A stretch of DNA of 17,836 nucleotides, taken from NCBI GenBank assembly GCA_052390515.1, contig JBQTGV010000209.1:1-17836 (forward strand). Reading direction: 5' to 3'. Every line of letters begins with the position of its first letter. The stretch's first letter is position 1. The stretch is from Candidatus Eiseniibacteriota bacterium. Lineage in GTDB: Bacteria; ARS69. Of the stretch, positions 1,200 to 16,818 are shown in pieces. Both the position numbers and the translations under genes were made by a program. The notes below the pieces were generated by a model. It ran no database searches, was not told the origin of the DNA, and was given only the letters and a program-made list of their open reading frames with translations.

Positions 1200-2159
1200 T
1201 CAGGAAGACGTGCTCCCGCCGGGCTTCGGGCGATGGTCCGGCTCCGCGAAGGGCTCCATCCCGAGGAAGCGGATCCGGAACGCGTCGATCGTATTGAGCC
1301 GGACCCTGTGGGTGAACTGGCCGACGGCGTCGTGCGCCGTCCAGGCCAGCCGGCGCGCGGGATCCACCGCTGCGTCCGGGTGCACGACCTCGTAGCCGAG
1401 CCGCGCGAGAGAGCTGCCTGCCACCGCTTCGAACGTGCGTACCTGCGCGGGACGGAGGTGCGTCTTCCACTTGCGGCTGTTGTCCCCGGCCACGCGCTTC
1501 AGCACCGCTTCCAGCCGCGCCGGCACGAACGGCTGTCCGAGAAAGCGGTGCAGGGCTTCGGCCTGCCGCTGCGGATCCTCGAGCAGCGTCTCGTAGCGCA
1601 CGTCGAGGAGGCGGCCCGAGGCACGCACGCGGGTGAGCACCTCGCTTTCGGCCGTACACCGGTTCCATAGCAGCGCGCAGGCGTACACGTTGCGCGGTCC
1701 CCACTTCCGCCCGAGAAGAGAGAGGGCGACGTCGCGTCCGTCCCGGAACACGTGCAGGTAGAGCGCGTTCGGGAAGAGCCGGTCGATGACGTCCAGCTCG
1801 AGGACGTAGTGGGGCGTCTTGTCGCCCCAGCCGGTGCGCCCGTGCCGCAGTACCCGCGCCAGGCAGATGCGGTCCACCAGCTCGGGGTAGGACGCGGTCT
1901 CCGGCGGCTCGACGAACGCATCCGGGTCGAGGGCCAACTTCCACTGCATCACCGGCCGTTCCTTGAGGATGTCCCTGAGCAGCCGCACGCGCGCCTCGCG
2001 GCGAGACAGATCCCCGTAGCGGGGAAGGAGCCGCGCGTACCTGGTGATGAAGTGCGACTCGACCGGAGGACCCCAGGCGGTCTCGCGGATCAGGCTGCCG
2101 ACCAGCGTCGTGCCGGAACGCGGACAGCCGATGACGAAGAGCGGGGGAGTCGGGCTCAC
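1200..2159 (-). CDS. PAPS-dependent sulfotransferase (Sulfotransfer_3-like)
   Basis: 5'-PSB loop FVIGCPRSGTT, WGDKTP, 3'-PB motif RDGRDVALS, VRYETLLEDP. GTG start preceded by AAGGAGG on the minus strand (2170-2176). Confidence 0.88.
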   Translation of the reverse strand: MSPTPPLFVIGCPRSGTTLVGSLIRETAWGPPVESHFITRYARLLPRYGDLSRREARVRLLRDILKERPVMQWKLALDPDAFVEPPETASYPELVDRICLARVLRHGRTGWGDKTPHYVLELDVIDRLFPNALYLHVFRDGRDVALSLLGRKWGPRNVYACALLWNRCTAESEVLTRVRASGRLLDVRYETLLEDPQRQAEALHRFLGQPFVPARLEAVLKRVAGDNSRKWKTHLRPAQVRTFEAVAGSSLARLGYEVVHPDAAVDPARRLAWTAHDAVGQFTHRVRLNTIDAFRIRFLGMEPFAEPDHRPKPGGSTSS

Positions 2160-2399: not shown

Positions 2400-3848
2400 G
2401 TGAAGAGGATCCTGATCGTCGACCCCGACACGCAGTATCGGGGCCGCGCTCGCGGAGTGCTGGAGGCGCTGGACTACGAAGTCGTGGCGCTGGCCAGTGC
2501 GGAAGACGCGCTGCTGGCGATGGGGGAGGGTGCGCCCTCCCTGGTCATCGCCGGCTGCGACGAGCCGCGCGATCCCGAAATGGAGCTGGTGAGGATGGCG
2601 CGGCGGGCGGTACGCCCGGTGCCCGTGCTCGTCCTGGCGCGCAACGGGAGCACGCGCGGCGCGATCGACTTCATGGACGCGGGCGCCTACGACTACGTCG
2701 TCAAGCCCGGGGATCCGAGCGAGCTGCTCGAAGTGGTGCGCGAGATCCTGCGCCTCTCCGGCGAGTTCGTGAACCCGGTGGAAGTGGCCGAGGCACCGGA
2801 CAAAGGCGGCGACGAGCGCGGCGAGATCATCGGGCGCAGCCCGGAGATGATCGAGATCTTCAAGCTGATCGGCCGGATCGCGAAGTCCGACGCTGCCGTC
2901 CTCGTCCAGGGCGAGAGCGGCACCGGCAAGGAGCTCGTCGCCCGCGTGATCCACGAGAACAGCCGGCGCGCCGAAAAGCCCTTCCTGGCCGTGAACTGCG
3001 CGGCCATCCCGGAGACGCTGCTGGAGAGCGAGCTCTTCGGGCACGAGAAGGGCGCCTTCACCGGATCGGCCGGACCGCGGAAGGGCAAGTTCGAGCTCTC
3101 CCACGGCGGCACCATCTTCCTCGACGAGGTCGGGGACATGAGCCTGGCCACGCAGGCGAAGATCCTGCGCGTGCTGCAGGAGCACACCTTCGAGCGCGTC
3201 GGCGGCGAGCAGACCCTCACTGCGGACACGCGGATCATCACCGCCACGAACAAGAGTCTGGTCGACGCGATCGAGCGGAGCGAGTTCCGGGTCGACCTCT
3301 TCTATCGCCTGAAGGTGGTGTCCATCTTCCTTCCGGCGTTGCGCAAGCGGCCCGGGGACGTACCGCTGCTGATCGACCACTTCATCCAGAAGCATCGCAA
3401 ACAGTCCAAGCTCTCCATCCACGGGATCTCCCAGCGCGCGCAGGCCTTCCTCGAGGCGCAGCCCTGGCCGGGGAACGTCCGCGAGCTGGAGAACGCCATC
3501 CAGACCGCGGTCGTGCTCAATCGGACCGGGCTCCTGGAGGTGGAGGACTTCCCGTTCCTGCGGCAGGGAGGGGAGAAGGACGGCGTGGCCGAGACGGTCA
3601 CCGACGTGCTCGATCGCCTCAAGTGCCAAGCGCGGCACGCGGCGCGCATCCTGCTCGCGTCGGAGGACGCCGCCGGAGGGGGCGAGGTCTACCACCGCTG
3701 CGTCGGCGAAGTGGAGCGCTCCGTCGTGGAAGCGGCGCTCGACCTGCATCGCGGGAACCAGGTGCGCGCGAGCCGGGCGCTCGGAATCAGCCGGAACACG
3801 TTGCGTAGCAAGATCGCTCCGGTTGACCGGGAAGAGAAGCGCCCCTAG
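2400..3848 (+). CDS. Sigma54-dependent transcriptional activator (atypical REC - AAA+ - Fis-type HTH)
   Basis: Walker A GESGTGKE, ESELFGHEKGAFTGS, Walker B IFLDEVG, DLFYRL, WPGNVRELEN, HTH GNQVRASRALGISRNTLRSK. Start placed at GTG 2400 (MKRILIVD), not the ORF-track start at 1752, which overlaps the sulfotransferase. Confidence 0.92.
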   Translation: MKRILIVDPDTQYRGRARGVLEALDYEVVALASAEDALLAMGEGAPSLVIAGCDEPRDPEMELVRMARRAVRPVPVLVLARNGSTRGAIDFMDAGAYDYVVKPGDPSELLEVVREILRLSGEFVNPVEVAEAPDKGGDERGEIIGRSPEMIEIFKLIGRIAKSDAAVLVQGESGTGKELVARVIHENSRRAEKPFLAVNCAAIPETLLESELFGHEKGAFTGSAGPRKGKFELSHGGTIFLDEVGDMSLATQAKILRVLQEHTFERVGGEQTLTADTRIITATNKSLVDAIERSEFRVDLFYRLKVVSIFLPALRKRPGDVPLLIDHFIQKHRKQSKLSIHGISQRAQAFLEAQPWPGNVRELENAIQTAVVLNRTGLLEVEDFPFLRQGGEKDGVAETVTDVLDRLKCQARHAARILLASEDAAGGGEVYHRCVGEVERSVVEAALDLHRGNQVRASRALGISRNTLRSKIAPVDREEKRP

Positions 3849-3870: not shown

Positions 3871-5085
3871 ATGAACATCCTCTTCCTGTCGCAGCGCGTT
3901 CCGGAGCCTCCCAACAAGGGCGACAAGATCCGCTCGCACCACTTCGCGCGGCGTCTGGCCGCGCGGCACGCCGTGCACCTGGCATGCCTCGCGGACGACC
4001 CCGCGGAGGAGGCGCACGTGGACGCGGCGAAGCGGTGGGCCGCCTCCGTCACCTGGCGGCAGCGCTGCGGCGCGGAGAGCGCGTGGCGCGCGGGCGTATC
4101 CGCGCTGACCGGGCGGCCGTTGACCGCGGGCTTCTTCCGCTCCGGCGGGCTCTCCGAGGCGGTCCGCCGCGCGCGGCAGCGGGAGCGGTTCGACGTGCTG
4201 GTGGCGTACTGCTCGGGGATGGCCGGGTACGTGGAAGGCTCGTCCGAGGCGAAAGTCCTCGATCTCGTCGACGTGGACTCCGAGAAGTGGAAGGAGTACG
4301 CACGGCGCGCGGCCCTTCCGGCCAGGGCCCTCTACGGCCTGGAGCACCGGCTGCTTCGTGGCTACGAGAAGCGTCTCGTGCGCGAGTTCGACCGGGCCGT
4401 GCTCATCTCCGTCGAGGAGCGGGACATGCTTGCTCGCTTCGCCGACGTGCGGCGCGTGGCGGTCGTCTCCAATGGAGTGGACGCGGAGTGGCTCGCGCGC
4501 CCGCGACCGCGGCCACGGGGTACCGTGCTGAGCTTCATCGGCGCGCTCGACTACTTCGCGAACGTGGACGGCATCGTCTGGTTCGCCCGGGAGGTCTTTC
4601 CCGAGGTGCGCCGCCGCGTGCCCGGGGCCACGCTGCGCGTCGTGGGCCGACGGCCCGTGCCGGCGGTGCGGGGGCTGTCGGACGGGGAGGGCGTCGAGGT
4701 CGTGGGAGAGGTCGCCGACATGAGGCCGGAGCTGTGGAGCGCGACGCTGGCCGTCGCCCCACTGCGGATCGCGCCGGGCATCCAGAACAAAGTGCTGGAG
4801 GCGATGGCCGCGGGAACGCCCGTCGTCGCGACGCGGGCCGCGCTGCGCAGCCTGGTCGGGCGGCCCGGCGAGCACTACCTGGCGGCCGACGGGGCGGAGG
4901 AGTTCGCGGCCGCGGTCTCGCGGCTCGTCGAGCGGCCGGACGAGGCTGATGCGATGGCCGCGCGCGCGCTCGCCCTGGTGCGCGATCGGTACTCGTGGGA
5001 CCAGCGTGCGCGGGAGTACGAGACCGTGCTGGAGGAGGCCGTCGCCGAACGGCGAAGCGTCGAAGCGCGCGGAGGAACGGTGTGA
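3871..5085 (+). CDS. GT4-family glycosyltransferase, PEP-CTERM/exosortase system-associated (TIGR03087-like)
   Basis: N-terminal LFLSQRVPEPPNKGDKIRS, DLVDVDSEKW, FIGALDYFANVDG, VAPLRIAPGIQNKVLEAMAAG. ATG 3871 follows GGAG. Confidence 0.9.
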   Translation: MNILFLSQRVPEPPNKGDKIRSHHFARRLAARHAVHLACLADDPAEEAHVDAAKRWAASVTWRQRCGAESAWRAGVSALTGRPLTAGFFRSGGLSEAVRRARQRERFDVLVAYCSGMAGYVEGSSEAKVLDLVDVDSEKWKEYARRAALPARALYGLEHRLLRGYEKRLVREFDRAVLISVEERDMLARFADVRRVAVVSNGVDAEWLARPRPRPRGTVLSFIGALDYFANVDGIVWFAREVFPEVRRRVPGATLRVVGRRPVPAVRGLSDGEGVEVVGEVADMRPELWSATLAVAPLRIAPGIQNKVLEAMAAGTPVVATRAALRSLVGRPGEHYLAADGAEEFAAAVSRLVERPDEADAMAARALALVRDRYSWDQRAREYETVLEEAVAERRSVEARGGTV

Positions 5086-5948
5086 AGAACGCGCTCACCG
5101 TGGACGTCGAAGACTGGTTCCAGGTCTCGAACTTCGACGGCGTGGTCCGCCGGGACGAGTGGGACAGCTTCCCCTCGCGCGTGGAAGCGAACACGCGACG
5201 TCTCCTGGACCTGTTCGCGCGGCACGGCGTCCGTGGCACGTTCTTCGTGCTCGGGTGGGTGGCGGAGCGCTTTCCCGATCTGGTCGCCGAGATCCGCCGT
5301 CTCGGGCACGACGTGGAGAGCCATTCGCACGGGCACGAGCTGGCCTACCGGCTCGGCGCGCAGCGCTTCGGGGAGGACCTTCGCCGCTCCCTGGACGCGC
5401 TCGAGAAGGCGACCGGAGTACGCCCGCGCGGGTTCCGCGCGCCGAGCTTCAGCATCGACCGCAGGAGTCTGTGGGCCTTCGACGTGCTCGCCGAGCACGG
5501 GATCGAGTACGACTCGAGCGTGTTCCCGGTGCGCCACCCCCGGTACGGGATGCCCGCGTTCTCTCGCGTGCCGAGACGGATTCGCACCGCGTCGGGCCGC
5601 ACCATCCGCGAATTTCCGCTCACCACGCTGCGCGTGCTGGGTCGAAACCTGGGGGCGTCGGGCGGCGCGTACCTGCGCATCCTGCCGATCGACGTGATGG
5701 TGCGCGCGTTCCGGCAGATGAACGCGGCCGGGCAGCCCGCCGTGCTCTACGTGCATCCGTGGGAGCTGGATCCGGGGCAACCTCGGCTCGGCGTTCGCGG
5801 CTGGGGACGCATCACGCACTACGCGAATCTCGCCTCGACGGAGCGACGGCTGGAGCGGCTGCTCCGGGCGTTCACCTTCGCTCCGATGGCGGACGTGCTG
5901 GAGTCCGCGCCCGGGATGGCGCAGGAGCCTGTCGAGGTCGGCGCGTGA
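5082..5948 (+). CDS. Polysaccharide deacetylase, PEP-CTERM locus subfamily (TIGR03006-like, DUF3473 C-terminus)
   Basis: NALTVDVEDWFQV, TFFVLGWVAE, HxxxH (HSHGH), GFRAPSFSI, YDSSVFP, YVHPWELDPGQPR. GTGA overlap with the upstream gene and GGAGG RBS. Confidence 0.9.
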   Translation: MKNALTVDVEDWFQVSNFDGVVRRDEWDSFPSRVEANTRRLLDLFARHGVRGTFFVLGWVAERFPDLVAEIRRLGHDVESHSHGHELAYRLGAQRFGEDLRRSLDALEKATGVRPRGFRAPSFSIDRRSLWAFDVLAEHGIEYDSSVFPVRHPRYGMPAFSRVPRRIRTASGRTIREFPLTTLRVLGRNLGASGGAYLRILPIDVMVRAFRQMNAAGQPAVLYVHPWELDPGQPRLGVRGWGRITHYANLASTERRLERLLRAFTFAPMADVLESAPGMAQEPVEVGA

Positions 5949-6826
5949 GCGCGGCGCGCGCGCTCCGCGGAACGGCACCCGACCTCGCGCTCCTGGGAGC
6001 GGGGCTCGTGCTGGTGTACGCGCCGCTCGCCCCGGAGCTGGTGCGCGACTGGTGGAGCTCCGGAGACTTTTCGCACGGCTTCTTCGTTCCGCTCGTCTCC
6101 GGGTGGATCGTGTGGACGCGTCGCGAGAGGATCGGCGCCGCGCCGATCCGGCCGTTCCCGCCCGGGCTCGCGCTACTCGTCCTCGCCGCCGCGCAGTACC
6201 TGCTCGGCGTGGCCGCCGCGGAGTTCTACCTGCAGCGGACCTCGGCGGTGCTGTTCCTCGGAGGCGGCGTGCTGTTCCTGTTCGGACCGCGCGTCGCCGC
6301 GGAGTGCGCGTTCGCCATCGTCTTCCTGCTCTTCGCCATTCCGCCGCCGAACCTGGTGATGAACTGGATCGCGTTCCCGCTCCAGCTGCAGGCCTCCCGA
6401 TTCACCGAGCTGATCCTGGATGTCGCCGGGATCGAGGCGGTGCGCAGCGGCAACGTGATCCATCTCGAGCACGTCTCGTTGGAAGTGGCCAGGGCGTGCA
6501 GCGGCCTGAGATCGCTGGTGACCCTCTCCGCTCTCGGCGCGATCGTCGCCGAGGGCAGCCTCCTGCCTTCGCGGGGCGGGCCGCGTGGCACCGCGCTGCG
6601 CGTTCTGGTGTTCCTCGGCGTGTTCCCGGTGGCGGTGGCGGTGAACTCGGTGCGCGTCGCCGCGACGGCGGTGTTCGCCGCGAACGGGGGCGTGGTGCTG
6701 GCCTCGGGGTGGGCTCACGAACTGGTCGGGCTGCTCATGTTCCTCGTTTCCATGGGCCTGCTCCTCGCCTGGAGGTCGATGCTGCGATGGATGGAATCGT
6801 GGCGCGCGTCGCCGCCGCGCTCCTGA
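5945..6826 (+). CDS. Exosortase (EpsH family transpeptidase)
   Basis: Multi-pass hydrophobic protein with DFSHGFFVP, FPLQ, GNVI, catalytic Cys in VARACSGLRS, Arg in VNSVRV, His in WAHELVG. GTGA overlap with the deacetylase. Confidence 0.92.
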   Translation: MSAARALRGTAPDLALLGAGLVLVYAPLAPELVRDWWSSGDFSHGFFVPLVSGWIVWTRRERIGAAPIRPFPPGLALLVLAAAQYLLGVAAAEFYLQRTSAVLFLGGGVLFLFGPRVAAECAFAIVFLLFAIPPPNLVMNWIAFPLQLQASRFTELILDVAGIEAVRSGNVIHLEHVSLEVARACSGLRSLVTLSALGAIVAEGSLLPSRGGPRGTALRVLVFLGVFPVAVAVNSVRVAATAVFAANGGVVLASGWAHELVGLLMFLVSMGLLLAWRSMLRWMESWRASPPRS

Positions 6827-7461
6827 TCGGGGCGATGCTGCTCGGCGGCCGGACGATCCGCGAGGGCGCCCGGCAGCCGGCGGAGTCCGTGCGTCTGGAG
6901 CTCGTCCCGCAGCAGCTCGGCGCGTGGGAGGGCACCGACCTCGAGGTCGGCGCCGACGTCCTGGAGCTGCTGGACCCGGACGGCTTCCTGCTCCGCGAGT
7001 ACCGGCAGGCCGGGGAGCTTCCTCTGCAGCTCTACGTGGACTACCACCGCGTGCAGCGTCTCGGCTCGACGATCCACTCGCCGCGGATCTGCTACCCGGG
7101 CGCGGGCTGGCAGCCCGTCGGCGTGGAGCTGGGCGAGATCACGGTGGACGGAGGAACGCGGCCGGCGTGCTGGCTTCGCCTGCGGTCCGGCGAGCGCGAG
7201 ATGCTCGTGCTGTACTGGTACGAGTCGCGTTGGGGACGCTCCGCGCGGGAGCTGGATCTCAAGAGGAACATCGTGCGCTCCGCGCTGATGCGGCGCCCGG
7301 CCGACGCGGCCCTGCTGCGCTTCGCGACGCCTCTCCTGGGAGGCGACGAAGGCGCGGCGCGGGAGCGCATCGTGCGCTTCGTGCGGGCCGCGGAGCCATC
7401 GGTGCGTCACGAGCTGCCGTTCGACCGAGAGGCGGACGGCGGCGTCCTGGAAACCGATTGA
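6787..7461 (+). CDS. epsI: EpsI family exosortase-associated protein
   Basis: N-terminal hydrophobic anchor, VPQQLGAWEG, LYVDYH, IHSPRICYPGAGW, LVLYWY. ATG 6787 follows GGAGG (6771-6775) and overlaps the exosortase 3' end by 40 nt. Confidence 0.85.
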   Translation: MDGIVARVAAALLIGAMLLGGRTIREGARQPAESVRLELVPQQLGAWEGTDLEVGADVLELLDPDGFLLREYRQAGELPLQLYVDYHRVQRLGSTIHSPRICYPGAGWQPVGVELGEITVDGGTRPACWLRLRSGEREMLVLYWYESRWGRSARELDLKRNIVRSALMRRPADAALLRFATPLLGGDEGAARERIVRFVRAAEPSVRHELPFDREADGGVLETD

Positions 7462-7511
7462 CAGTCCCCGGAGGCACTCGGATCATGCCTCCGCTTTGTC
7501 GGAGAGGAACG

Positions 7512-8648
7512 ATGCGGGAACGTACACGCCGGATCGCGACGGCCGCCGCGCTCGCCCTCGCCTCGATCAGCGGACCGGCGCTCGCGCAGGATGCCGCGGT
7601 GGAGGAGGGCCCCGCGCTCGAGTTCCGCGCGAACGTGCCCTGGGCGCGCGTGGTGCTCGAGGGGGATCCCTCGATCGCGGGCGTTTCGCCGCTTCGCGTA
7701 CCGGGCCCGCTCGCCGGCAACCTGTGGCTGTACGCGGCGGGACCGGGGCTCGAGGAGCAGCGCGGGAAGGTCCGCGTCGTACTCGACGAGAACGGCTCGC
7801 ACATCGCGTCCTACGGGTCGCTGCCGTTTCGCCAGACGATGACGCGCGCCGTGCTGTACCCCGGCTTCGCCCCGCTGCGGGCACAGGAGCGGACCAAGGG
7901 GCTCACCATGGCGGCCGCCGCCACCGCGGGGCTGGTCCTCTCGCTGTGGGCCCACGACGACTATCGAGGCGCGCTGGACCGGCGCGAGTCGGCGGAGGCG
8001 GACCTGGCCGCCGCGCCCGACAGCACGCTGCCGGCGGCCCGGGAGGCCCTGCGCGGGGACCGGGCCGAGGAAGGGCACCTGCGCGATCGCCGTGATCTGT
8101 TCCTGAGCGCCACGGCGGCCGTGTGGGGAGTCAGCCTCGTCGACGCCCTCGTGTTCCGCCCGCGCTTCGACGTGACCGAAGCGGACGAGACGTCGCTCAC
8201 GGTGAGCCTCCGCCGGAAGTCGCGCGGGCAGGCCGTGGCGCGCTCGCTCTTCTTCCCGGGCCTCGGTCAGGCGTACAACGGGCAGCGCCGCAAGGGGTTC
8301 TGGGTCGCCCTGGGAGGCCTGGCGGCCGGGTCCTACGCGGTGTGGCGCATGGACGACGTCGCCCGTGCGGAGGCCCAGCTGCGTCAGGCCGAGGCCCGGC
8401 TCGCGGAGCTGGACACGCCCGAGAGCGAGGCGTTGCGGGACAAGAGCCTGGGCGACGTCGAGAACACCCGTAGCGAACGGGACACGGCCTTCAAGATCCT
8501 GGCGGGGTACTGGGGGCTCTCGCTGCTCGATTCCGTGCTCTCCTTCGAGGAGCCCTGGGGCACCGTCCCGGTCGGCGCCGAGCAGAGCGCGCTCCGCTGG
8601 CGCATCGATCCCGCGCGGGGCGTCGTCGCCGGCGAGCTGCGTTTCTGA
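7512..8648 (+). CDS. Exported/membrane hypothetical protein: signal peptide, possible PEGA-like domain, two DUF5683-like repeats
   Basis: MRERTRRIATAAALALASISGPALA-QD signal peptide; repeats RAVLYPGFAP...KG...VWGVSLVDA and RSLFFPGLGQAYNG...KG...YWGLSLLDS; RBS GGAGAGG before ATG 7512. Domain names are by recognition only. Confidence 0.7.
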   Translation: MRERTRRIATAAALALASISGPALAQDAAVEEGPALEFRANVPWARVVLEGDPSIAGVSPLRVPGPLAGNLWLYAAGPGLEEQRGKVRVVLDENGSHIASYGSLPFRQTMTRAVLYPGFAPLRAQERTKGLTMAAAATAGLVLSLWAHDDYRGALDRRESAEADLAAAPDSTLPAAREALRGDRAEEGHLRDRRDLFLSATAAVWGVSLVDALVFRPRFDVTEADETSLTVSLRRKSRGQAVARSLFFPGLGQAYNGQRRKGFWVALGGLAAGSYAVWRMDDVARAEAQLRQAEARLAELDTPESEALRDKSLGDVENTRSERDTAFKILAGYWGLSLLDSVLSFEEPWGTVPVGAEQSALRWRIDPARGVVAGELRF

Positions 8649-8668
8649 GCTGCTTCGGAACACACGAA

Positions 8669-8698
8669 TTGACAGCTTTCGGATCCCGGTGCTAGTCT
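8669..8698 (+). promoter_or_regulatory. Sigma70-type promoter for the sugar transferase
   Basis: TTGACA (8669-8674), 18-nt spacer ending in TGC (extended -10), TAGTCT (8693-8698), in intergenic DNA. Confidence 0.7.
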
Positions 8699-8778
8699 TT
8701 CGGTTCGCGAAGGCATCGGCAAGGTCCGGGTGGGGATGCGGCGGTCCTTCGCAACCCCGTTTCGCCCGGAGCGAGGCC

Positions 8779-9555
8779 GTGCGCGAGTCGGAAGTGCAAA
8801 GCAGCCGTTCTCCCGTATTCGTCGCCGCGAGCGTCGTCTCGGCGATGCCGGCGCCCCGTCTGGTCGCAGAACCCGTGCGGCCCGATCCTCTTCGCCGCAT
8901 CGTCGACGTCGTGGGCTCGGCCGTGCTCCTCGTTCTCTTCCTTCCGGTCATGGTCGCGATCGCCGCTTCGATCCGCGCCGGCTCGCGGGGCCCGATCTTC
9001 TACCGGCAGACGCGCGTGGGCATCAATCGACGCACCGGCATGGACCGCCGCGCGCCGGTCAGCCGTGCCGCGGGCCTCGATCGGCGCCGCATGGACCGTC
9101 GCACCATCGCCAGTGCCGGGAAGCAGTTCCGGATCGTCAAGTTCCGCACGATGGTGGAGGACGCGGAGGCCGAGACCGGGCCGCAGTGGGCGGCGAAGGG
9201 CGACGCTCGCGTCACCACGATCGGCCGGCTGCTCCGGCGTTACCGCCTCGACGAGCTTCCGCAGCTCGTGAACGTGCTCCGCGGCGACATGACGTTCATC
9301 GGCCCGCGTCCCGAGCGGCCCTTCTTCGTCGAGCGCTTCCGACGGCGGATTCCCGCGTACGCTGATCGATTGACGACGCTGCCCGGGATCACCGGTCTCG
9401 CGCAGGTGGAGCACAAGTACGACGAGACTGAGGAGGACGTGCGGCGCAAGCTCGAGTACGACCTCCGCTACATCCGGGAGAGGGGGCTGCTCACCGATCT
9501 GCGGATCTTGTGGCGGACGGTCATCGTCGTCCTCACCGGTGCCGGGGCGCACTGA
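8779..9555 (+). CDS. Priming sugar transferase (polyprenyl-phosphate phosphoglycosyl transferase, Bac_transf family)
   Basis: RRIVDV, GPIFYRQTRVG, KFRTM, GRLLRRYRLDELPQLVNVLRGDMTFIGPRPERP, PGITGLAQV, KLEYDLRY. Start uncertain: GTG 8779 (GGAG 7 nt upstream) or ATG 8845. Confidence 0.9.
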   Translation: MRESEVQSSRSPVFVAASVVSAMPAPRLVAEPVRPDPLRRIVDVVGSAVLLVLFLPVMVAIAASIRAGSRGPIFYRQTRVGINRRTGMDRRAPVSRAAGLDRRRMDRRTIASAGKQFRIVKFRTMVEDAEAETGPQWAAKGDARVTTIGRLLRRYRLDELPQLVNVLRGDMTFIGPRPERPFFVERFRRRIPAYADRLTTLPGITGLAQVEHKYDETEEDVRRKLEYDLRYIRERGLLTDLRILWRTVIVVLTGAGAH

Positions 9556-9619
9556 CCCCTGGTCCGCGTCCGACCAGCCACGTCGAGCATAGGTCCCGAA
9601 GCCTCCGCACCGCGCCGGC

Positions 9620-9648
9620 TTGACCCGGCTCTCCGACCGTGCTAGCGT
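9620..9648 (+). promoter_or_regulatory. Sigma70-type promoter for the STAS-GGDEF-epimerase-regulator unit
   Basis: TTGACC (9620-9625), 17-nt spacer ending in TGC, TAGCGT (9643-9648). Confidence 0.65.
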
Positions 9649-9703
9649 GCGCGCCGGAACTTCCAGTCAATACGTGACTTAGGACGAACCGCGCAGGGGA
9701 GCC

Positions 9704-10105
9704 TTGGAGCATTCCGTTCGGGACGTGGGGGACGTGACCGTCGTCACGATCCAGGGGAAGATCCTGGGCGGGCCGGAGTCCGAGGGCCTCCGGGTCGAGC
9801 TGGAGCGGATCGTGGGCGGCTCCTGCCGCCGGCTCCTGGTCGACCTCTCGGGCGTCCCGTGGATGAACAGCGCGGGGCTGGGGATCCTTCTCTCGGCCTA
9901 TGCCCGCATGCGGGAGCGGGGCGGGGACGTCCGCCTCGCCGGTGCGGGACCCCGGGTCCGAGATATCCTACGAACGACCAAACTCCTCACGGTTCTTGCC
10001 GTCCTGGACGATGAAGGGGCAGGAATTCGGAGCTTCGAGGCGGGTCCCTCCGCGGACCGGGAGGCCGGCGCCCGGGCAGGGGGCGTCCGTCCGGGCTCCG
10101 GGTGA
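9704..10105 (+). CDS. STAS-domain protein (anti-sigma factor antagonist, SpoIIAA/RsbV-like)
   Basis: VTVVTIQGKI, LLVDLSGVPWMNSAGLGILL with the phosphorylatable Ser, GGDVRL, VRDILRTTKL; TTG start after GGGGAG. Confidence 0.88.
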   Translation: MEHSVRDVGDVTVVTIQGKILGGPESEGLRVELERIVGGSCRRLLVDLSGVPWMNSAGLGILLSAYARMRERGGDVRLAGAGPRVRDILRTTKLLTVLAVLDDEGAGIRSFEAGPSADREAGARAGGVRPGSG

Positions 10106-10177
10106 GCCGAGCGGTCGTTCCCGAACCCGCCGGATCCCGCGCGGCATGCGCACTTCGACCCTCCGAGGGCGTGGGTG

Positions 10178-11218
10178 ATGGACCGTTCCGCCAGAGCAGC
10201 CGGTGACGCGGCGATGGCCGACCAGGCCCGCATCGTCGCGGAGCTGCTCGCGCTGCCGCCGCTCGGTCAGACCGGCCGCCTCAAGTATGCGGCGCTCCTG
10301 CAGGGCGCGGTGACTTTGCTCGGCGCGCAAGGGGCGACCGTCGGCTTCTGGGTCTCCCCGGGGGAGCTGCGGCGCTTCCGCGCGCGAGCCGGAGAAGGGG
10401 GAAGCGACGTGCACGAGGACGTCGGGGATCCCGGGCGCTCCGACGGCCCCGTCGCCACGGTGCTTCGCTCCGGCGGAGCGCGGCTACTGGGACCCGAGAC
10501 GCCGGCCGAACCGGGCGGCGAGTACCCCGGATTCCCCTCCGTCTCGCGCATCCTGCTCGGGCTGCGTCTTCGCGACGAGCCGCCTGCCCTGCTCAGCGTG
10601 CACCGCTTCGGCGGGACGCCGTTCGCGGCACCGGATCGCGAGAGGGCGGAGCTGCTCGCTCCGCTCTTCGCCACCGCGCTCGACAACCTGCGCCGCTTCT
10701 CCCGCGCCGAGGAGCTCTCCATCACCGACGGGCTCACCGGCGTGTACAACTACCGCTACTTGCGCAGCGCGCTGGACAAGGAAGTGGCGCGCGCTCGGCG
10801 CTTTCGCGAGAAGTTCTCCATCATCATGCTCGACGTCGATCACCTGAAGGAATACAACGACGTGCACGGCCACCTGCGAGGCAGCGAGGTGCTTCGCCGC
10901 CTGGCGGGCCTCGTCACCGCCGAGCTTCGCGGCGCGGACATCGTGGCCAAGTACGGCGGCGACGAGTTCGTGATCATCCTGCCCCAGACCGAGCGGCCCG
11001 GCGCGCGGATCCTGGCGGAGAGGATCCGCCGTTCGGTGGAGGCGCACGAGTTCCCCGGCGAGGACAAGGGAATGAAGATCACGTCGTCGATGGGGATCGC
11101 GCAGTTCCCCGAGGACGGCGAGGTCTCCCGCGACCTGCTGGATGCGGCGGACACGGCGCTCTACGAGGCGAAGCGGTCCGGGCGCAACCGGGTGTCGGCG
11201 GAGTCTCGATCCGCGTAG
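10178..11218 (+). CDS. GAF-like sensor GGDEF dinucleotide cyclase; candidate Hypr (3',3'-cGAMP-producing) enzyme
   Basis: TDGLTGVYNYRY, MLDVDHLKEYNDVHGHLRGS, I-site RGAD five residues before GGDEF, ADTALYEAKRSGRN; GAF-type exit helix PFAAPD...LATALDN-like. Start at GTG 10175 or ATG 10178. Confidence 0.9.
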   Translation: MDRSARAAGDAAMADQARIVAELLALPPLGQTGRLKYAALLQGAVTLLGAQGATVGFWVSPGELRRFRARAGEGGSDVHEDVGDPGRSDGPVATVLRSGGARLLGPETPAEPGGEYPGFPSVSRILLGLRLRDEPPALLSVHRFGGTPFAAPDRERAELLAPLFATALDNLRRFSRAEELSITDGLTGVYNYRYLRSALDKEVARARRFREKFSIIMLDVDHLKEYNDVHGHLRGSEVLRRLAGLVTAELRGADIVAKYGGDEFVIILPQTERPGARILAERIRRSVEAHEFPGEDKGMKITSSMGIAQFPEDGEVSRDLLDAADTALYEAKRSGRNRVSAESRSA

Positions 11219-11230
11219 GGAGGAGGAGGC

Positions 11231-12202
11231 GTGGCGAAGTTCCTCGTCACGGGGGGCGCCGGGTTCATCGGCTCCAACCTGGTGGATGCACTGGTGGCCG
11301 CGGGCGGCTCGGTGCGGGTGCTCGACGACTTCTCGAGCGGCCGGCGTGAGAACCTGGAGCGCGCCCGCTCGCGGGTCGATCTGATCGAGGGCAGCATCAC
11401 CGATCCGGACGCGGTCGCGCGGGCCATGCGCGGCGCGGACTACGTGCTGCACCACGCGGCCATCGCCTCGGTGCCGAAGTCGCTGGCCGATCCGGAGCTG
11501 GCCTATCGCACCAACGTGGAGGGCACGCTGAACCTGCTGGAAGCGGCCCGCCGCGAAACCGTGCAACGACTCGTGCTGGCCTCGTCCTCGGCGGTCTACG
11601 GCGACGGCGACGGCACGGATCCGGACGCGCCGCGCTCGGAGGAAATGTCTCCCGATCCGTTGTCACCGTACGCGGCCTCGAAGCTGGCCGGTGAGATCTA
11701 CTGCCGGCAGTACACGGCGTGCGGCTGGGTTCCGACGGTGTGCCTACGGTACTTCAACATTTTCGGGCCACGTCAGGACCCGGGGTCGGACTACGCCGCG
11801 GTCGTGCCCATCTTCATCCGCCGGCTGCTCGAGGGAAACCGCGCCGTGATCCACGGCGATGGGCTGCAGACGCGGGACTTCACCTACATCGAGAACGCCG
11901 TGCGCGCGAACCTGCTGGCGGTGGAGCGGGCGTCCGCGGTCGGCGGCGTGTTCAACGTCGGCTGCGGGCGGTCCTTCCGCGTCATCGACCTGTACCGGCG
12001 GATCGCGGACTTCTTCGAGTCCCGGCTGGAGCCGGTGCACGAGCCGGAGCGCGAGGGCGACGTGCGCAACTCCAGGGCCTCGATCGAGCTGGCGCGGGTG
12101 AAGCTCGGCTATCAGCCTTCAGTCGGCTTCGAAGAGGGTCTGGCCAACACCTGCTCGTGGTTCCGCGCGCATCCCGAGGCGGCCGGGGTGGCGGGCTCGT
12201 GA
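11231..12202 (+). CDS. NAD-dependent NDP-sugar epimerase/dehydratase (extended SDR; UDP-Glc/GlcNAc 4-epimerase-like)
   Basis: LVTGGAGFIGSNL, ASSSAVYG, catalytic YAASK, LRYFNIFGPRQDP, GDGLQTRDFTY, REGDVRNS; strong AGGAGG RBS. Confidence 0.92.
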   Translation: MAKFLVTGGAGFIGSNLVDALVAAGGSVRVLDDFSSGRRENLERARSRVDLIEGSITDPDAVARAMRGADYVLHHAAIASVPKSLADPELAYRTNVEGTLNLLEAARRETVQRLVLASSSAVYGDGDGTDPDAPRSEEMSPDPLSPYAASKLAGEIYCRQYTACGWVPTVCLRYFNIFGPRQDPGSDYAAVVPIFIRRLLEGNRAVIHGDGLQTRDFTYIENAVRANLLAVERASAVGGVFNVGCGRSFRVIDLYRRIADFFESRLEPVHEPEREGDVRNSRASIELARVKLGYQPSVGFEEGLANTCSWFRAHPEAAGVAGS

Positions 12203-13614
12203 GCTCGCCGGGCACCCTGGTCCTGGTCGTGGACGACGACCGCATGTTCCGTCGGATCCTCGAGTCCGGTCTGTCCGACATGGGGTTCCGCGTGGAGACG
12301 AACGATGGCGCCGGCGACGTTCCTGCGGTCGTCGCCTCCGCCGGGCCCGACGTCGTGCTCCTCGACCTGGAGCTCCCCGGTCAGACCGGCCTCGACGTGC
12401 TCGCGCGCTTCGCCGCCGCGAGGCTGGAAGTCCCGGTCATCATGGTGACCGGCACCGAGGACGTCTCCACCGCGGTCCGCGCCATGCGCACGGGTGCCTT
12501 CGACTACGTGACCAAGCCGGTCAACCTCGAGGAGCTGTCCGTCTCCATCGAGCGGGCCGTGGAGTCGGCGCGCGTCCTCCGCGAGCGGAACCTGTACCGG
12601 GACCGTTACGACCGCCGGTTCCGCGTGGTGGAGAGCCGGAACCCGGCGATGCGGCGCATCTACGAGCTCGCGCGGCGAGTGGCGCAGAGCCAGACCACGA
12701 CGGTGCTGATCCAGGGCGAATCGGGCACGGGCAAGGAGCACATCGCGAACCTCATTCACCAGGCTTCGCCCCGCAGCGACAAACCGTTCCTGGAGATCAA
12801 CTGCGCCAGCCTGCCCGACCCTCTGCTGGAGAGCGAGCTCTTCGGGCACGAGCGGGGTGCGTTCACCGACGCGTCGGAGCGCAAGCGCGGCCTCCTGGAG
12901 CTCGCCGACGGCGGCACCCTCTTCCTCGACGAGGTGGGGGAGATGGCGCTGCCCATCCAGGTGAAGATGCTGCGCGTGCTGGAGCGCATGTCGTTCCGGC
13001 GGGTCGGAGGAACCGAGGACATCCAGGTGTCCATCCGCATCATCTCGGCGACGAACCGGGACCTCGCGAAGGCGGTCGCGGAGGGGGAGATGCGCGAAGA
13101 CTTCTTCTTCCGGCTGAAGGTCGTGCCGATCGAGCTGCCGCCGCTTCGCCAGCGTCCGGAGGACTTCGCCCCGCTGGTGGAGAGCTTCCTGGAGGAGTTC
13201 TCGCATGCCTTCGGGCGCTCGTTCAGCGGCGTCTCCGGCGAGGCCATGCGGCTCATGCGCGCGTACGCCTGGCCGGGGAACATCCGCGAGCTTCGCAACT
13301 GCCTGGAGCGTGCCGTGCTTCTGCACGACGGGACGGAGCTGAGCGCGGAGATGCTCTCGATTCCGGGGAGCGGGCTTCCGGGGGATGAGCCGCTCGAGTT
13401 CCTGGAAGATCTGCGCGAGATCGGCGAGCGCGGAATCCCGGAGGCGGGCGTGGACTTCGAGCGCCTCGTCGGCTCCCTGGAGCGCTTCCTCATCTCCAAG
13501 GCGTCGGAGAAGGCGAGTTGGAACCAGAGCCTGGCCGCGCGCTACCTGCACCTGAACCGGGACAAGCTGCGCACGCGGATGAAGAACCACGGTCTCGGCC
13601 GCGGTTCGAGCTAG
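12199..13614 (+). CDS. Sigma54-dependent response regulator (canonical REC - AAA+ - HTH; NtrC/AtoC-like)
   Basis: REC: VVDDD, VVLLDLELP, IMVTG, YVTKP. AAA+: GESGTGKE, ESELFGHERGAFTDA, LFLDEVG, WPGNIRELRN. HTH NQSLAARYLHLNRDKLR. GTGA overlap with the epimerase. Confidence 0.92.
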   Translation: MSSPGTLVLVVDDDRMFRRILESGLSDMGFRVETNDGAGDVPAVVASAGPDVVLLDLELPGQTGLDVLARFAAARLEVPVIMVTGTEDVSTAVRAMRTGAFDYVTKPVNLEELSVSIERAVESARVLRERNLYRDRYDRRFRVVESRNPAMRRIYELARRVAQSQTTTVLIQGESGTGKEHIANLIHQASPRSDKPFLEINCASLPDPLLESELFGHERGAFTDASERKRGLLELADGGTLFLDEVGEMALPIQVKMLRVLERMSFRRVGGTEDIQVSIRIISATNRDLAKAVAEGEMREDFFFRLKVVPIELPPLRQRPEDFAPLVESFLEEFSHAFGRSFSGVSGEAMRLMRAYAWPGNIRELRNCLERAVLLHDGTELSAEMLSIPGSGLPGDEPLEFLEDLREIGERGIPEAGVDFERLVGSLERFLISKASEKASWNQSLAARYLHLNRDKLRTRMKNHGLGRGSS

Positions 13615-13679: not shown

Positions 13680-14210
13680 ATGCGTTCGATCGCGGAGACG
13701 GCCCGGCTCCTGTCCGGCGCCCTCCTGCTCGGCATGCTCGCGGCGGGCTGCGCCGTGTACGGGTTCTCGTCGTCGCTCCTTCCCGGGCACATCAAGAGCG
13801 TCGCGGTGACGCTGTTCGACAACCGGACCGAGCGCGGGGACCTGGCCACGGCGCTCGCGGACTCGCTGACGGAAGCGTTCCTCTCCAACCACACGCTGCA
13901 AGTGGCGGGGGAGAAGGCGGCGGACTCGTGGGTGGAGGGAACCCTGCTGGAGTACCGTCGCCAGCCGTTCACGGTGGACGAGAACGAGCAGGTGCTGGAG
14001 TACAAGGTGGAGATCGCCGTGGAGGTGCGCTTCGTGGACGTCCGGAAGAACCAGGTGATCTGGGAGGATCCGCGGCTCGTGCAGTGGGCCATCTACCAGT
14101 TCGCGCCGGGTCCTACGGGAGAGCAGCCCGAAACAGAAGAGACCGGAATCGGCCGGGTCATGGCGAAGCTGACCGATGACATCCTGAACCGCACCGTCGA
14201 GGGTTGGTGA
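13680..14210 (+). CDS. lptE: LptE-family outer-membrane lipoprotein (LPS assembly)
   Basis: Lipobox LAAG-C, then [42 protein letters not shown]; adjacent to leuS as lptE often is. Confidence 0.75.
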
Positions 14211-14220
14211 CGAGGCGAAC

Positions 14221-16818
14221 ATGCAGAGCGCCGGCGTGAAAGAGACGTGGAAGGACGGAGCGCGCTACCCGTTCGCCGAGGCGGAGCGGAAGTGGCAGGA
14301 ACGCTGGCTGCGCGAGCAGACCTTCCGCACTCCCGAGAATCTCGAAGGGCGGCCGAAGTACTACGTGCTGGTCATGTTCCCGTACCCCTCGGGGGCGGGC
14401 CTGCATGTCGGGCACCCCGAGTCCTACACCGCGGCCGACATCCTGGCGAGGTACAAGCGGATGCGGGGATTCGCCGTGCTGCACCCCATGGGGTGGGACG
14501 CGTTCGGGCTTCCCGCCGAACAGTACGCGGTGCAGACCGGGACGCACCCGCGCATCACCACCCGGCGCAACATCGACACTTTCCGCCGGCAGGTCCGCAT
14601 GCTGGGACTCTCGTACGACTGGGAGCGCGAGATCGACACCACCGATCCGTCGTACTACCGCTGGACGCAGTGGATCTTCTTGCGGCTGCTCGGCTCCTTC
14701 TATGACGAGACCACGGGGCGGGCGCGTCCGATCGAGGAGCTGGTCGTCCCCGAGGACGTGAGGGCGAAGGGCGACGCGACGGTCCGGGCGTACCGTGACT
14801 CGCGACGGCTCGCGTACCAGTCCGAGATTCCGGTGAACTGGTGCGCCGCGCTCGGAACCGTGCTGGCGAACGAGGAGATCGTCGACGGCAAGAGCGAGCG
14901 CGGCGGGTATCCGGTGGAGCGCCTTCCGCTCCGGCAGTGGATGCTGCGGATCACCGCGTACGCGGATCGGCTGCTTGCCGACCTCGACGAGGTGGACTGG
15001 CCCGAGCCGATCAAGCTGCAGCAGCGGAACTGGATCGGAAAGAGCGAGGGCGCGGAGGTGGACTTCCCGCCCGCGGCCGGGGCCTCCGGCACGGACGCTC
15101 GCCGTCCGTTCCAGGAGGAAGCGCTCGCGGGCACCATCCGCGTCTACACGACGCGGCCGGACACCATCTTCGGCGCCACGTTCCTCGTGCTGTCGCCGGA
15201 GCACCCCCTGGTGGAGCGCTTCACCACGCCGGATCGTCGCGAGGCGATGCTACGCTACCGCGACGCGTCCGCGCGCAAGAGCGAGATCGAGCGGACCGAT
15301 CTCGCGCGGGAGAAGACCGGGGTCCCGACGGGCGGCTTCGCCTGGAACCCGGCCACCGGCGAGAACGTGCCGGTGTGGGTGGCGGACTACGTGCTCATGG
15401 GCTATGGCACCGGCGCGATCATGGGAGTCCCCGGCCACGACGAGCGCGACCACGAGTTCGCGCGGAAGTACGGGCTGGAGATCCGGTCGATCCTCGCCGA
15501 CGGCGGGGATCCGGTGCCTCCGGGCGCGGACCAGTCGGGTGCGCGCTTCGTGCGCTCGTCCGGACCGCAGGTCAGCCTCGACGGGCTGGACGTGCCCGCG
15601 GGCAAGCGGCGGATCATCGAGTGGCTGGAGCGCAGCGGGTGGGGCCGGGCCGCGTCGAACACGAAGCTCCGCGACTGGATCTTCAGCCGGCAGCGCTACT
15701 GGGGCGAGCCGATCCCCGTCCTCCACGGCGAGAACGGCGAGATCGTTCCGGTCGACGACTCCGAGCTGCCGCTCGTGCTTCCGGAGATGGAGGACTTCTC
15801 GCCGTCCGGCCGCCCCGAGCCCATGCTGGCCAAGGCGAAAGAGTGGGCGGAAGTCGTCGATCCGCAGACCGGAAAGCGCTGGGTGCGGGAGACGAACACC
15901 ATGCCGCAATGGGCCGGCTCCTGCTGGTACTACCTGCGTTACATCGATCCGGCGAACGGCGCGCAGCCGTTCGATCCGGCGAAGGAGCGCGCGTGGATGC
16001 CGGTCGACATCTACATCGGCGGCGCCGAGCACGCCGTGCTGCACCTCCTGTACGCGCGCTTCTGGCACAAGGTCCTGTACGACCTCGGGTACGTGTCGAC
16101 CACGGAGCCGTTCCGGAAGCTCATGAACCAGGGGATGATCTTGGGCGAGGACGGCGACAAGATGTCCAAGGCGCGCGGCAATGTGATCAACCCGGACGAC
16201 GTCGTCGAAGAGCACGGCGCCGACGCGCTTCGCCTGTACGAGATGTTCATGGGGCCGCTGGAGGTGGACAAGCCCTGGTCGACGAAGGGCATCCACGGCA
16301 TCTCGCGCTTCCTGGATCGGGCCTGGCGCGCGGCGCAGTTCGCCGAGCCGGAGGGCGATCCGTTCGCGCGTGCCAGGCACCGCACCATCCGCAAGGTCAC
16401 CGAGGACATCGAGAGGGTGCGCCTGAACACGGCGATCTCGGCCCTGATGGAGTTCGTGAACGAGCTCACCCGGACCGAGAGGGCATCGGTGGAGGACAAG
16501 CGCACGCTCACGCTGCTGCTTTCGCCCTTCGCCCCGCACCTCGCCGAGGAGGTCTGGGAGCGGCTCGGGGCACGGGCTTCGCTGGCCTACGAGCCCTGGC
16601 CGGAGTTCGATGCCCGGCTGGCGGCGGCGGACTCCGTCACCATCGTGATCCAGATCGACGGGAAGGTCCGCGGCAAGTTCGAGGTCGAGGCCGGCGCTCC
16701 GAACGACGAGCTCGAGCGGCGGGCGCTCGCCGACGATTCGGTCCGCCGCCATCTCGAAGGGCGCACCCCGAGTAAGGTCGTGGTGATTCCCGGGCGCCTG
16801 GTGAACCTCGTCACCTGA
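14221..16818 (+). CDS. leuS: Leucine--tRNA ligase
   Basis: [14 protein letters not shown] (HIGH), [12 protein letters not shown], editing domain YTTRPDT and [55 protein letters not shown] (KMSKS). Confidence 0.97.

Follow-up and report, generated by a model that had tools for sequence, protein, structure and literature searches.

Why should the enzyme predicted to start exopolysaccharide (EPS) synthesis carry a long, arginine-rich loop on the hairpin that leads into its catalytic core? The question is raised by a 17.8-kb contig from a Candidatus Eiseniibacteriota genome (4.27 Mb, 95% complete), which was analysed in its entirety (17,836 nucleotides) and is referred to here as the window. A phosphoglycosyl transferase (PGT) gene at 8845-9555 on the plus strand encodes a 236-residue protein that is interrupted by 32 residues rich in Arg and Asp (residues 60-91; 9022-9117, plus strand), located at the tip of a beta-hairpin (strands at residues 52-58 and 94-100). 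A preliminary description of this DNA had proposed that the insertion senses a cyclic dinucleotide, and the analysis reported here partly supports that idea. We tentatively read the loop, with somewhat less than even confidence, as a switch by which the EPS priming enzyme would respond to cyclic dinucleotides, the ligand being bound via DRR and RRxxD elements. The loop is a good experimental lead, not an established sensor.

The identity of the enzyme was assessed by profile and structure comparison. The protein matched PF02397 (Bac_transf) with an E value of 4e-60 (202.8 bits, cut-off 27) in two stretches that are split at the insertion, and it gave matches below the cut-off to TIGR03025 and TIGR03013. 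An AlphaFold2 model (mean predicted local distance difference test score, pLDDT, 91.6) contained helices at residues 15-31 and 33-46 that form the N-terminal helix-break-helix, or re-entrant helix, of the PglC fold. Foldseek matched this model to PglC (8e37_A, E 3e-13, target-normalised TM score 0.78) and to 8t53_A (E 3e-10). K99, R101, M103, D136, E137, G153-P156 (GPRP) and P180-G184 (PGITG) were invariant in two alignments of relatives, one of 28 diverse insertion-bearing members that are 41-74% identical to the query (A1) and one that also has insertion-less rows (A2). Three of these residues belong to the KFRTM strand (9139-9153, plus strand), which connects the hairpin to the catalytic core; D136 and E137 form an Asp-Glu pair within an LDELPQL motif (9250-9255, plus strand) that we take, from what is known of PglC, to be the catalytic dyad. 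Judged from its sequence, the protein is a small PglC-like monotopic PGT, predicted to transfer sugar-1-phosphate to polyprenyl phosphate. It shares with the Campylobacter enzyme PglC (8e37, 8g1n) the fold, the re-entrant helix, the hairpin, the KFRTM strand and the Asp-Glu pair, whereas nothing in PglC corresponds to the insertion, and we know of no regulatory loop in that enzyme. The start codon is uncertain: ATG at 8845 gives 236 residues and GTG at 8779 gives 258, the length at which the nearest database homologues are annotated.

The insertion itself is well delimited. Positions 9022-9117 of the plus strand translate to INRRTGMDRRAPVSRAAGLDRRRMDRRTIASA, residues 60-91 when counted from the ATG at 8845, preceded by YRQTRVG and followed by GKQFRIVKFRTM. 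The exact translation, the split Pfam match and the break in the alignments to solved PglC structures (8e37, 8g1n), which are interrupted at query residues 63 and 93 with the flanking PglC residues abutting, agree with the preliminary description that 32 residues lie between the glycines of RVG and GKQF. Relatives without the insertion have a two-residue turn at this site, as was seen in 57 members of a set of 270 proteins (the query, the best 120 hits of a word search and 149 representatives chosen at 50% identity). Of the others, 192 had a loop of at least 20 residues, three were mis-anchored by the regular expression and 18 could not be classified; the set favours relatives of the query, and its proportions are not family-wide frequencies. 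In the model, the second strand of the hairpin continues into the invariant KFRTM motif. The loop had pLDDT values of 63-71 between flanks of at least 93 and was drawn as coil with a short helix at residues 78-83. For a relative with a 20-residue loop, pLDDT fell to 58 at residues 71-80 within a core above 90, and no confident hairpin was predicted from this minimal loop. The low model confidence suggests that the loop is probably flexible, or that it folds only on binding something.

Insertion-bearing PGTs turned out to be a widespread, uncharacterised subfamily that is common in soil and sediment phyla seldom brought into culture. Pooling of proteins and genomic loci gave 322 distinct loops of 18-98 residues, with length peaks at 20 (72 loops), 30 (63 loops) and 32 residues (59 loops) and an overall composition of 30% Arg and 9% Asp. 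They share a core in which (N/D)RR opens the loop and (D/E)RR, frequently in the form RRxx(D/E), lies close to its end. In A1, R63 and R86 were invariant (28/28) and R62 and R85 were conserved in at least 90% of the members; in A2, R63 reached at least 90% with the insertion-less rows included. In the window, the first conserved Arg pair is contained in N61-R62-R63 (9025-9033, plus strand) and the second in D84-R85-R86 (9094-9102, plus strand). The DRR motifs are conserved across insertion-bearing homologues, a point on which the preliminary description had staked its proposal.

Loops of the 20-residue class (72 distinct sequences) follow the pattern x-D-R-R-x9-R-R-x-x-D-x-G, in which R14 (96%), R15 (100%), D18 (94%) and G20 (99%) are nearly fixed; the corresponding values for D2, R3 and R4 (94-99%) are in part built into the sampling, because the DNA pattern that fetched many of these loops demanded [ND]RR. 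The pattern [DN]RR-x8-12-[RK]Rxx[DE] was found in 156 of the 322 loops, compared with a mean of 2.3 and a maximum of 9 in 200 composition-preserving shuffles, and [DE]RRxx[DE]RR was found in 78, compared with a shuffled mean of 0.8; the arrangement therefore exceeds what composition alone gives. RRxx[DE]xG closes 99 of the loops. Set beside these statistics, the loop of the window looks like the minimal motif (D67RR-x10-R80R81xxD84; 9043-9096, plus strand) nested between the extra RR pairs of N61RR and D84RR. Separately, some members have greatly enlarged loops (L118, L150 and L168, 66-67 residues; P0173, 68 residues; P0247, 98 residues) with up to about ten copies of (G)DRR or ERR, which look like repeat amplification within the loop.

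The nearest counterpart of this motif is found in CleD. In the part of the CleD study drawn on here, the C-terminal peptide binds an intercalated dimer of cyclic di-GMP (c-di-GMP) via DRR-x11-(R/K)RxxD, and the free peptide is unstructured and adopts a hairpin on ligand binding (PMC7382256). The same excerpt lists single-residue deletions that weaken binding 2- to 11-fold without abolishing it, and a Y163A substitution that weakens it about 25-fold (Table 1, PMC7382256). The loop of the window contains the first element as D67-R68-R69, together with further copies, and the second as R80-R81-R82-M83-D84. Both systems present a short linear Arg/Asp motif, DRR followed by (R/K)RxxD, with six conserved residues of the PGT loop mapping on the two elements, and the predicted flexibility of the PGT loop resembles the lack of structure in the CleD peptide without ligand (PMC7382256, in part). 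The settings differ: the PGT motif is an internal loop of a membrane enzyme, whereas that of CleD is the C-terminal tail of a CheY-like protein (PMC7382256, PMC5677366). The motif in the window is moreover flanked by additional RR pairs, and c-di-GMP binding by the PGT loop is putative.

The second line of evidence comes from the genes around the transferase. As the preliminary description had stated, a GGDEF gene of the dinucleotide-cyclase type lies two genes downstream of the PGT: a gene for a STAS, or anti-sigma-factor-antagonist-like, protein (9704-10105, plus strand; PF01740, E 2e-15; TIGR00377) is followed by one for a GAF-GGDEF cyclase (10178-11218, plus strand; PF00990, E 1e-43). Genome-wide there are five GGDEF domains, two PilZ domains and no EAL domain, and one of the five GGDEF domains lies 620 bp from this PGT. 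The cyclase retains an intact GGDEF motif (10955-10969) and, five residues before it, an RGAD I-site (10928-10939). A Ser (codon 10883-10885) in its GHLRGSEVL sequence follows an Asn by 9 residues and precedes the Asp of GGDEF by 26. These spacings equal those of Asn339, Ser348 and Asp374 in the Geobacter Hypr GGDEF protein GacA, for which the excerpted report gives Ser/Thr at position 348 plus GGDE[F/Y] as the signature (PMC6456294). The best match in the PDB was 6d9m, a T4-lysozyme-GGDEF fusion with GHLxGS and NYRYL in common, and alignment to it shows that the cyclase shares with GacA the Ser at 348, a GGDEF motif with Asp and the Tyr at the cross-dimer position; it differs from GacA in having an N-terminal GAF rather than REC domain and a STAS gene upstream. 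Ser and GGDEF occurred together in 120 of the 120 best homologues, and the other four GGDEF proteins of the genome have Asp at the Ser348 position. The Ser, the spacings and the homologues point to an apparently active Hypr-type enzyme, a candidate synthase of cyclic GMP-AMP (cGAMP) or c-di-GMP, a point in support of the interpretation given in the preliminary description.

A STAS homologue was present in the loci of 6 of the 7 orthologous relatives. The STAS gene lies directly 5' of the cyclase, which is reminiscent of SiaC/SiaD, where a partner switch controls a diguanylate cyclase; the match to NF038266 fell below the cut-off.

In Gemmatimonadota the neighbour is of a different kind, a REC domain fused to a degenerate GGDEF domain (by Pfam, REC in 15/15 and PF00990 at E <=1e-3 in 12/15). 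GG[DE]EF was found in none of the 17 informative sequences, and RxxD lies five residues before the degenerate motif in all 17, so that, by sequence, these neighbours show the pattern of I-site c-di-GMP receptors. An RxxD I-site is retained in both neighbour types (RGAD in the window; 17/17 of the degenerate REC-GGDEF proteins), which speaks for a nucleotide-responsive loop. The gap between the PGT and the REC-GGDEF gene was merely 4-48 bp, on the same strand, in L257, L265 and L267. The Gemmatimonadota module, comprising a sigma54 activator, the REC-degenerate-GGDEF protein and a PGT with a 20-residue loop, was observed in several gene orders (L253-L269, L007, L022, L118, L157 and others).

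To place these neighbours in context, GGDEF proteins were sought among six-frame open reading frames (ORFs) of at least 70 residues within about 10 kb on each side of each PGT, using a profile iterated from the protein of the window; on the genome of the window this profile recovered the same five loci as Pfam. In the phylum of the window, which comprises only 12 species genomes, each with an orthologue, a GGDEF gene was located 364-839 bp downstream on the same strand in 6 of 7 orthologues and in the window, compared with 0/7 insertion-less PGTs. In the class Gemmatimonadetes (61 genomes) the counts were 13/19 insertion-bearing versus 0/21 insertion-less. In a mixed sample of 80 loci, among the matches listed, GGDEF genes were near 4/8 insertion-bearing PGTs (loops of 19-22 residues, Gemmatimonadales-type) versus 0/72 insertion-less ones (mostly large PGTs from other phyla, used as controls). 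When the control loci were re-searched with all filters off, no additional GGDEF match better than E 0.05 appeared. Metagenome loci, some of which duplicate genome loci, had GGDEF genes in 15/66 cases overall and in 10/24 with at least 8 kb of flank. Sorted by loop length, again with at least 8 kb of flank, GGDEF-like ORFs accompanied 25/43 loops of 18-24 residues, 0/1 of 25-29 and 1/1 of more than 33. Of the closest PGT homologues, 21/52 agree with one of the closest GGDEF homologues in the length of their longest contig, an indirect sign that the two lie on one contig. Three details bear on these tallies: L270 was chosen as insertion-bearing, found to have a two-residue turn and counted as insertion-less; the mixed and class samples overlap by two loci (L271 is the place of L007, L268 that of L031); and the class tallies include three unpublished genomes (G034, G038, G045) that contributed none of the counted loci.

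The analysis shows a conserved loop that is predicted to be flexible, resembles a known motif and is linked to GGDEF genes; the mechanism that we propose adds three inferences, namely ligand binding, ligand identity and an effect on catalysis. In this scheme a conserved, flexible loop would sit on the cytoplasmic beta-hairpin through which the chain enters the KFRTM strand at the active site of the priming PGT. The ligand of its paired (N/D)RR...RRxx(D/E) elements would be c-di-GMP or whatever the adjacent Hypr-type cyclase makes, bound much as c-di-GMP is by the CleD peptide; the neighbouring GGDEF-domain protein might contribute its RxxD I-site, perhaps by sharing the ligand. Nucleotide binding would order the loop and switch PGT activity, and the first committed step of EPS synthesis, here presumably by a Wzx/Wzy-type, exosortase-associated pathway, would thereby be coupled to cyclic-dinucleotide signalling. 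A more specific proposal, possible and more doubtful in our estimation, treats the loop as a CleD-like module that is portable and would make the PGT a direct receptor, for the Hypr product (possibly 3',3'-cGAMP) in the phylum of the window and within a ternary c-di-GMP bridge in Gemmatimonadota. In that bridge the loop would share an intercalated c-di-GMP dimer with the RxxD I-site of the REC-degenerate-GGDEF protein, which would serve as an adaptor under the control of phosphorylation.

Control of polysaccharide synthesis by c-di-GMP is understood for cellulose, alginate, Pel and poly-N-acetylglucosamine (PNAG), which are made by synthase-dependent systems. According to the excerpted text of a 2025 mBio paper, such control is known for synthase-dependent pathways and the post-translational control of Wzx/Wzy-dependent pathways is poorly understood (PMC12802240). 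Our own titles-level survey of the literature on c-di-GMP with PGTs or priming glycosyltransferases found no report of nucleotide binding by a PGT. If the loop does bind a cyclic dinucleotide, it would be the first example of a second-messenger-gated priming enzyme and a direct switch for the production of slime, that is, exopolysaccharide. It would also mean that the linear motif of CleD serves in an enzyme loop as well as in CheY-like proteins, and it would offer a possible protein effector for Hypr-GGDEF signalling, perhaps by 3',3'-cGAMP.

Several observations weigh against a nucleotide-responsive loop, beginning with the motif. The two elements are separated by 10 residues in the window and by 9 in the minimal 20-residue class, versus 11 in CleD (PMC7382256, in part). 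There is no aromatic residue in the loop of the window and none conserved in the 20-residue class that could correspond to CleD Tyr163, and the Gly-Pro turn of CleD has no conserved counterpart in the PGT loops. The earlier comparison with the Arg-rich region of Cle proteins was apt as regards the DRR and (R/K)RxxD elements and does not extend to the stacking Tyr, which is missing. Loops also grow to 66-98 residues with many copies of DRR, growth that a single defined binding site does not predict.

The linkage to GGDEF genes has limits of its own. One orthologue in the phylum of the window (L239) has no GGDEF neighbour; a second insertion-bearing PGT paralogue had a GGDEF gene within 10 kb in 0/6 relatives; and loops of 30-33 residues in other phyla with at least 8 kb of flank gave 0/3. 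In a tree of 105 PGTs from the loci, with the loop columns excluded, the insertion changed state once, so that the insertion-bearing enzymes form one clade, the GGDEF linkage amounts to one independent contrast and no statistical claim can be made for it; Fisher p values such as 2e-6 overstate the linkage, as independent events are not counted. A FastTree phylogeny of 242 catalytic domains gave eight state changes, with weak support (51-58) at key splits. The co-occurrence of insertion and GGDEF gene that the preliminary description had envisaged holds as a linkage in two phyla, absent from the insertion-less PGTs sampled, and breaks down at the paralogue and at the loci with loops of about 30 residues.

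A more constant neighbour than GGDEF was a sigma54 activator, represented in the window by the response regulator at 12199-13614. It was near 7/7 insertion-bearing versus 0/7 insertion-less PGTs in the phylum of the window, 16/19 versus 0/21 in the Gemmatimonadetes sample and, among the matches listed, 5/8 versus 13/72 in the mixed sample. Some sigma54 activators of this class bind c-di-GMP, and if the activator here responds to it, the GGDEF linkage could reflect transcriptional control and need not involve the loop. Three loci from other taxa with loops of 30-31 residues have in common with the window a DUF5683 protein and a sigma54 regulator and have no GGDEF gene. The core synteny is therefore DUF5683-PGT-sigma54 regulator. 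Two lineages have added GGDEF genes to it, and these might act on transcription rather than on the enzyme.

Among alternatives for the loop itself, one is that it is a docking site for a protein partner, such as the REC-degenerate-GGDEF, GAF-GGDEF or STAS protein or another product of the locus, and does not itself bind nucleotide. There is a precedent in Myxococcus xanthus, where the response regulator EpsW directly activates the PGT EpsZ (PMC12802240, as excerpted). As would be the case in the window under the proposed scheme, the initiating PGT of a Wzx/Wzy-type EPS pathway is under post-translational control by a co-encoded signalling protein; in contrast, EpsZ is described there as a large PGT that is regulated via a cytoplasmic DUF and dimerisation, with no nucleotide ligand and no Arg-rich loop in the excerpted account (PMC12802240). 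The REC domain in 15/15 scanned Gemmatimonadota neighbours, the short same-strand gaps at some of these loci, the retention of proximity while gene order varies and the flexibility of the loop, a property of many docking motifs, all fit such a role. However, the partner differs by phylum (GAF-GGDEF versus REC-degenerate GGDEF) while the core of the loop is identical, and the paralogues and the loci with 30-residue loops lack such a neighbour. On balance we consider docking unlikely.

A second alternative, also improbable in our view, is that the loop acts electrostatically on anionic ligands at the surface of the membrane. These could be phospholipid head groups, polyprenyl phosphate or diphosphate, or a nucleotide-sugar that is acidic or sulphated, and the loop would tune membrane association or substrate choice without signalling. 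The loops are 30% Arg and that of the window contains 10 Arg and 3 Asp; in this monotopic enzyme the hairpin runs on into the strand that carries the invariant K99 and R101. The sulfotransferase and epimerase encoded in the locus suggest an unusual sugar. Simple anion binding would, however, not be expected to conserve acidic or amide residues (Asp/Asn; D2 in 96% and D18 in 94% of 20-residue loops), and it leaves the linkage of the clade to GGDEF-domain genes unexplained.

The weakest alternative, and the least probable, is that a surface turn tolerated an expansion of low complexity, which one PGT clade then inherited without specific function: the length range of 18-98 residues with a poorly conserved middle, the low model confidence, the single origin on the tree and the favouring of Arg codons in high G+C genomes would all be in keeping with it, but two Arg pairs and flanking acidic residues are near-invariant among sequences only 40-50% identical, the ordered motif was found in 156 loops compared with 2.3 in shuffled ones, and the length distribution is sharply peaked at 20, 30 and 32 residues.

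Other known systems were compared with the proposed cyclic-dinucleotide switch. PelD, PssE and PopA represent c-di-GMP receptors that use the I-site of a degenerate GGDEF domain to control polysaccharide synthesis. The Gemmatimonadota neighbours resemble them in lacking GG[DE]EF, in retaining RxxD (17/17) and in adjoining a polysaccharide enzyme, whereas the targets of PelD, PssE and PopA are synthase-dependent systems or proteolysis; we know of none of this type that acts on a PGT. A PilZ-like reading based on RxxxR, an analogy drawn in the preliminary description, was rejected, as a Pfam scan of the PGT returned Bac_transf only, without a PilZ domain, and what the loops conserve is not RxxxR. 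Both PilZ matches of the genome are on contig C3. Identity with the dimerisation hairpin of WbaP (Asn251-Gln268) was also rejected, since in the excerpted description that hairpin belongs to a DUF upstream of the catalytic domain (PMC10942596).

Upstream regulation was examined on the DNA. A promoter-like motif, TTGAC-N13-17-GTGCTAG, matched three times in the 4.27-Mb genome, twice within the window: at 8669-8695 (plus strand), upstream of the PGT, and at 9620-9645 (plus strand), upstream of the STAS-GGDEF pair. The presence of two of the three copies at these genes suggests a common promoter. The third copy (C188:6752-6779, minus strand) lies before an unrelated ORF. A scan of 8500-10300 for sigma70 promoters and terminators called nothing, the motif copies included, and an Rfam scan of the window gave a chance-level match only. 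With the searches used, no c-di-GMP-I or c-di-GMP-II (GEMM) riboswitch was found in the genome, a weak negative in view of the 95% completeness of the assembly and of an RF01051 control that matched 0/14 control genomes.

By matches of the Pfam and TIGRFAM type, the window as a whole is an exosortase-type EPS locus. Upstream of the PGT it encodes a FemAB-like XrtA-associated protein (150-1196), a sulfotransferase (1200-2159, minus strand), a sigma54 response regulator (2400-3848), a TIGR03087 glycosyltransferase (3871-5085), an XrtA-system deacetylase (4995-5948), an exosortase (5945-6826), EpsI (6787-7461) and, directly 5' of the PGT, the DUF5683 protein (7485-8648, plus strand). Downstream of the cyclase follow an epimerase (11231-12202), a second sigma54-dependent response regulator (12199-13614, plus strand), LptE (13680-14210) and LeuRS (14221-16818). 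Two sigma54-dependent response regulators thus occur within one EPS locus (2400-3848 and 12199-13614), both scoring below the cut-off of TIGR02915, the model for the PEP-CTERM-box regulator.

The second insertion-bearing PGT paralogue is present in every genome of the phylum; it is 53-58% identical, carries a loop of 30-32 residues and in several genomes lies about 30 kb from the first PGT. In the relatives (L240-L245) it has no sigma54 neighbour within 10 kb (0/6). The copy in the genome of the window (G000:C59:12743-13393, minus strand) has a GGDEF protein about 10 kb away on the same contig, C59. DUF5683 is a conserved neighbour of insertion-bearing PGTs in the phylum of the window and in the loci L154, L180 and L188, which have loops of about 30 residues; the DUF5683 protein carries a PEGA domain in L180 and L188, and in L154, as in the window, LeuRS is encoded near the insertion-bearing PGT.

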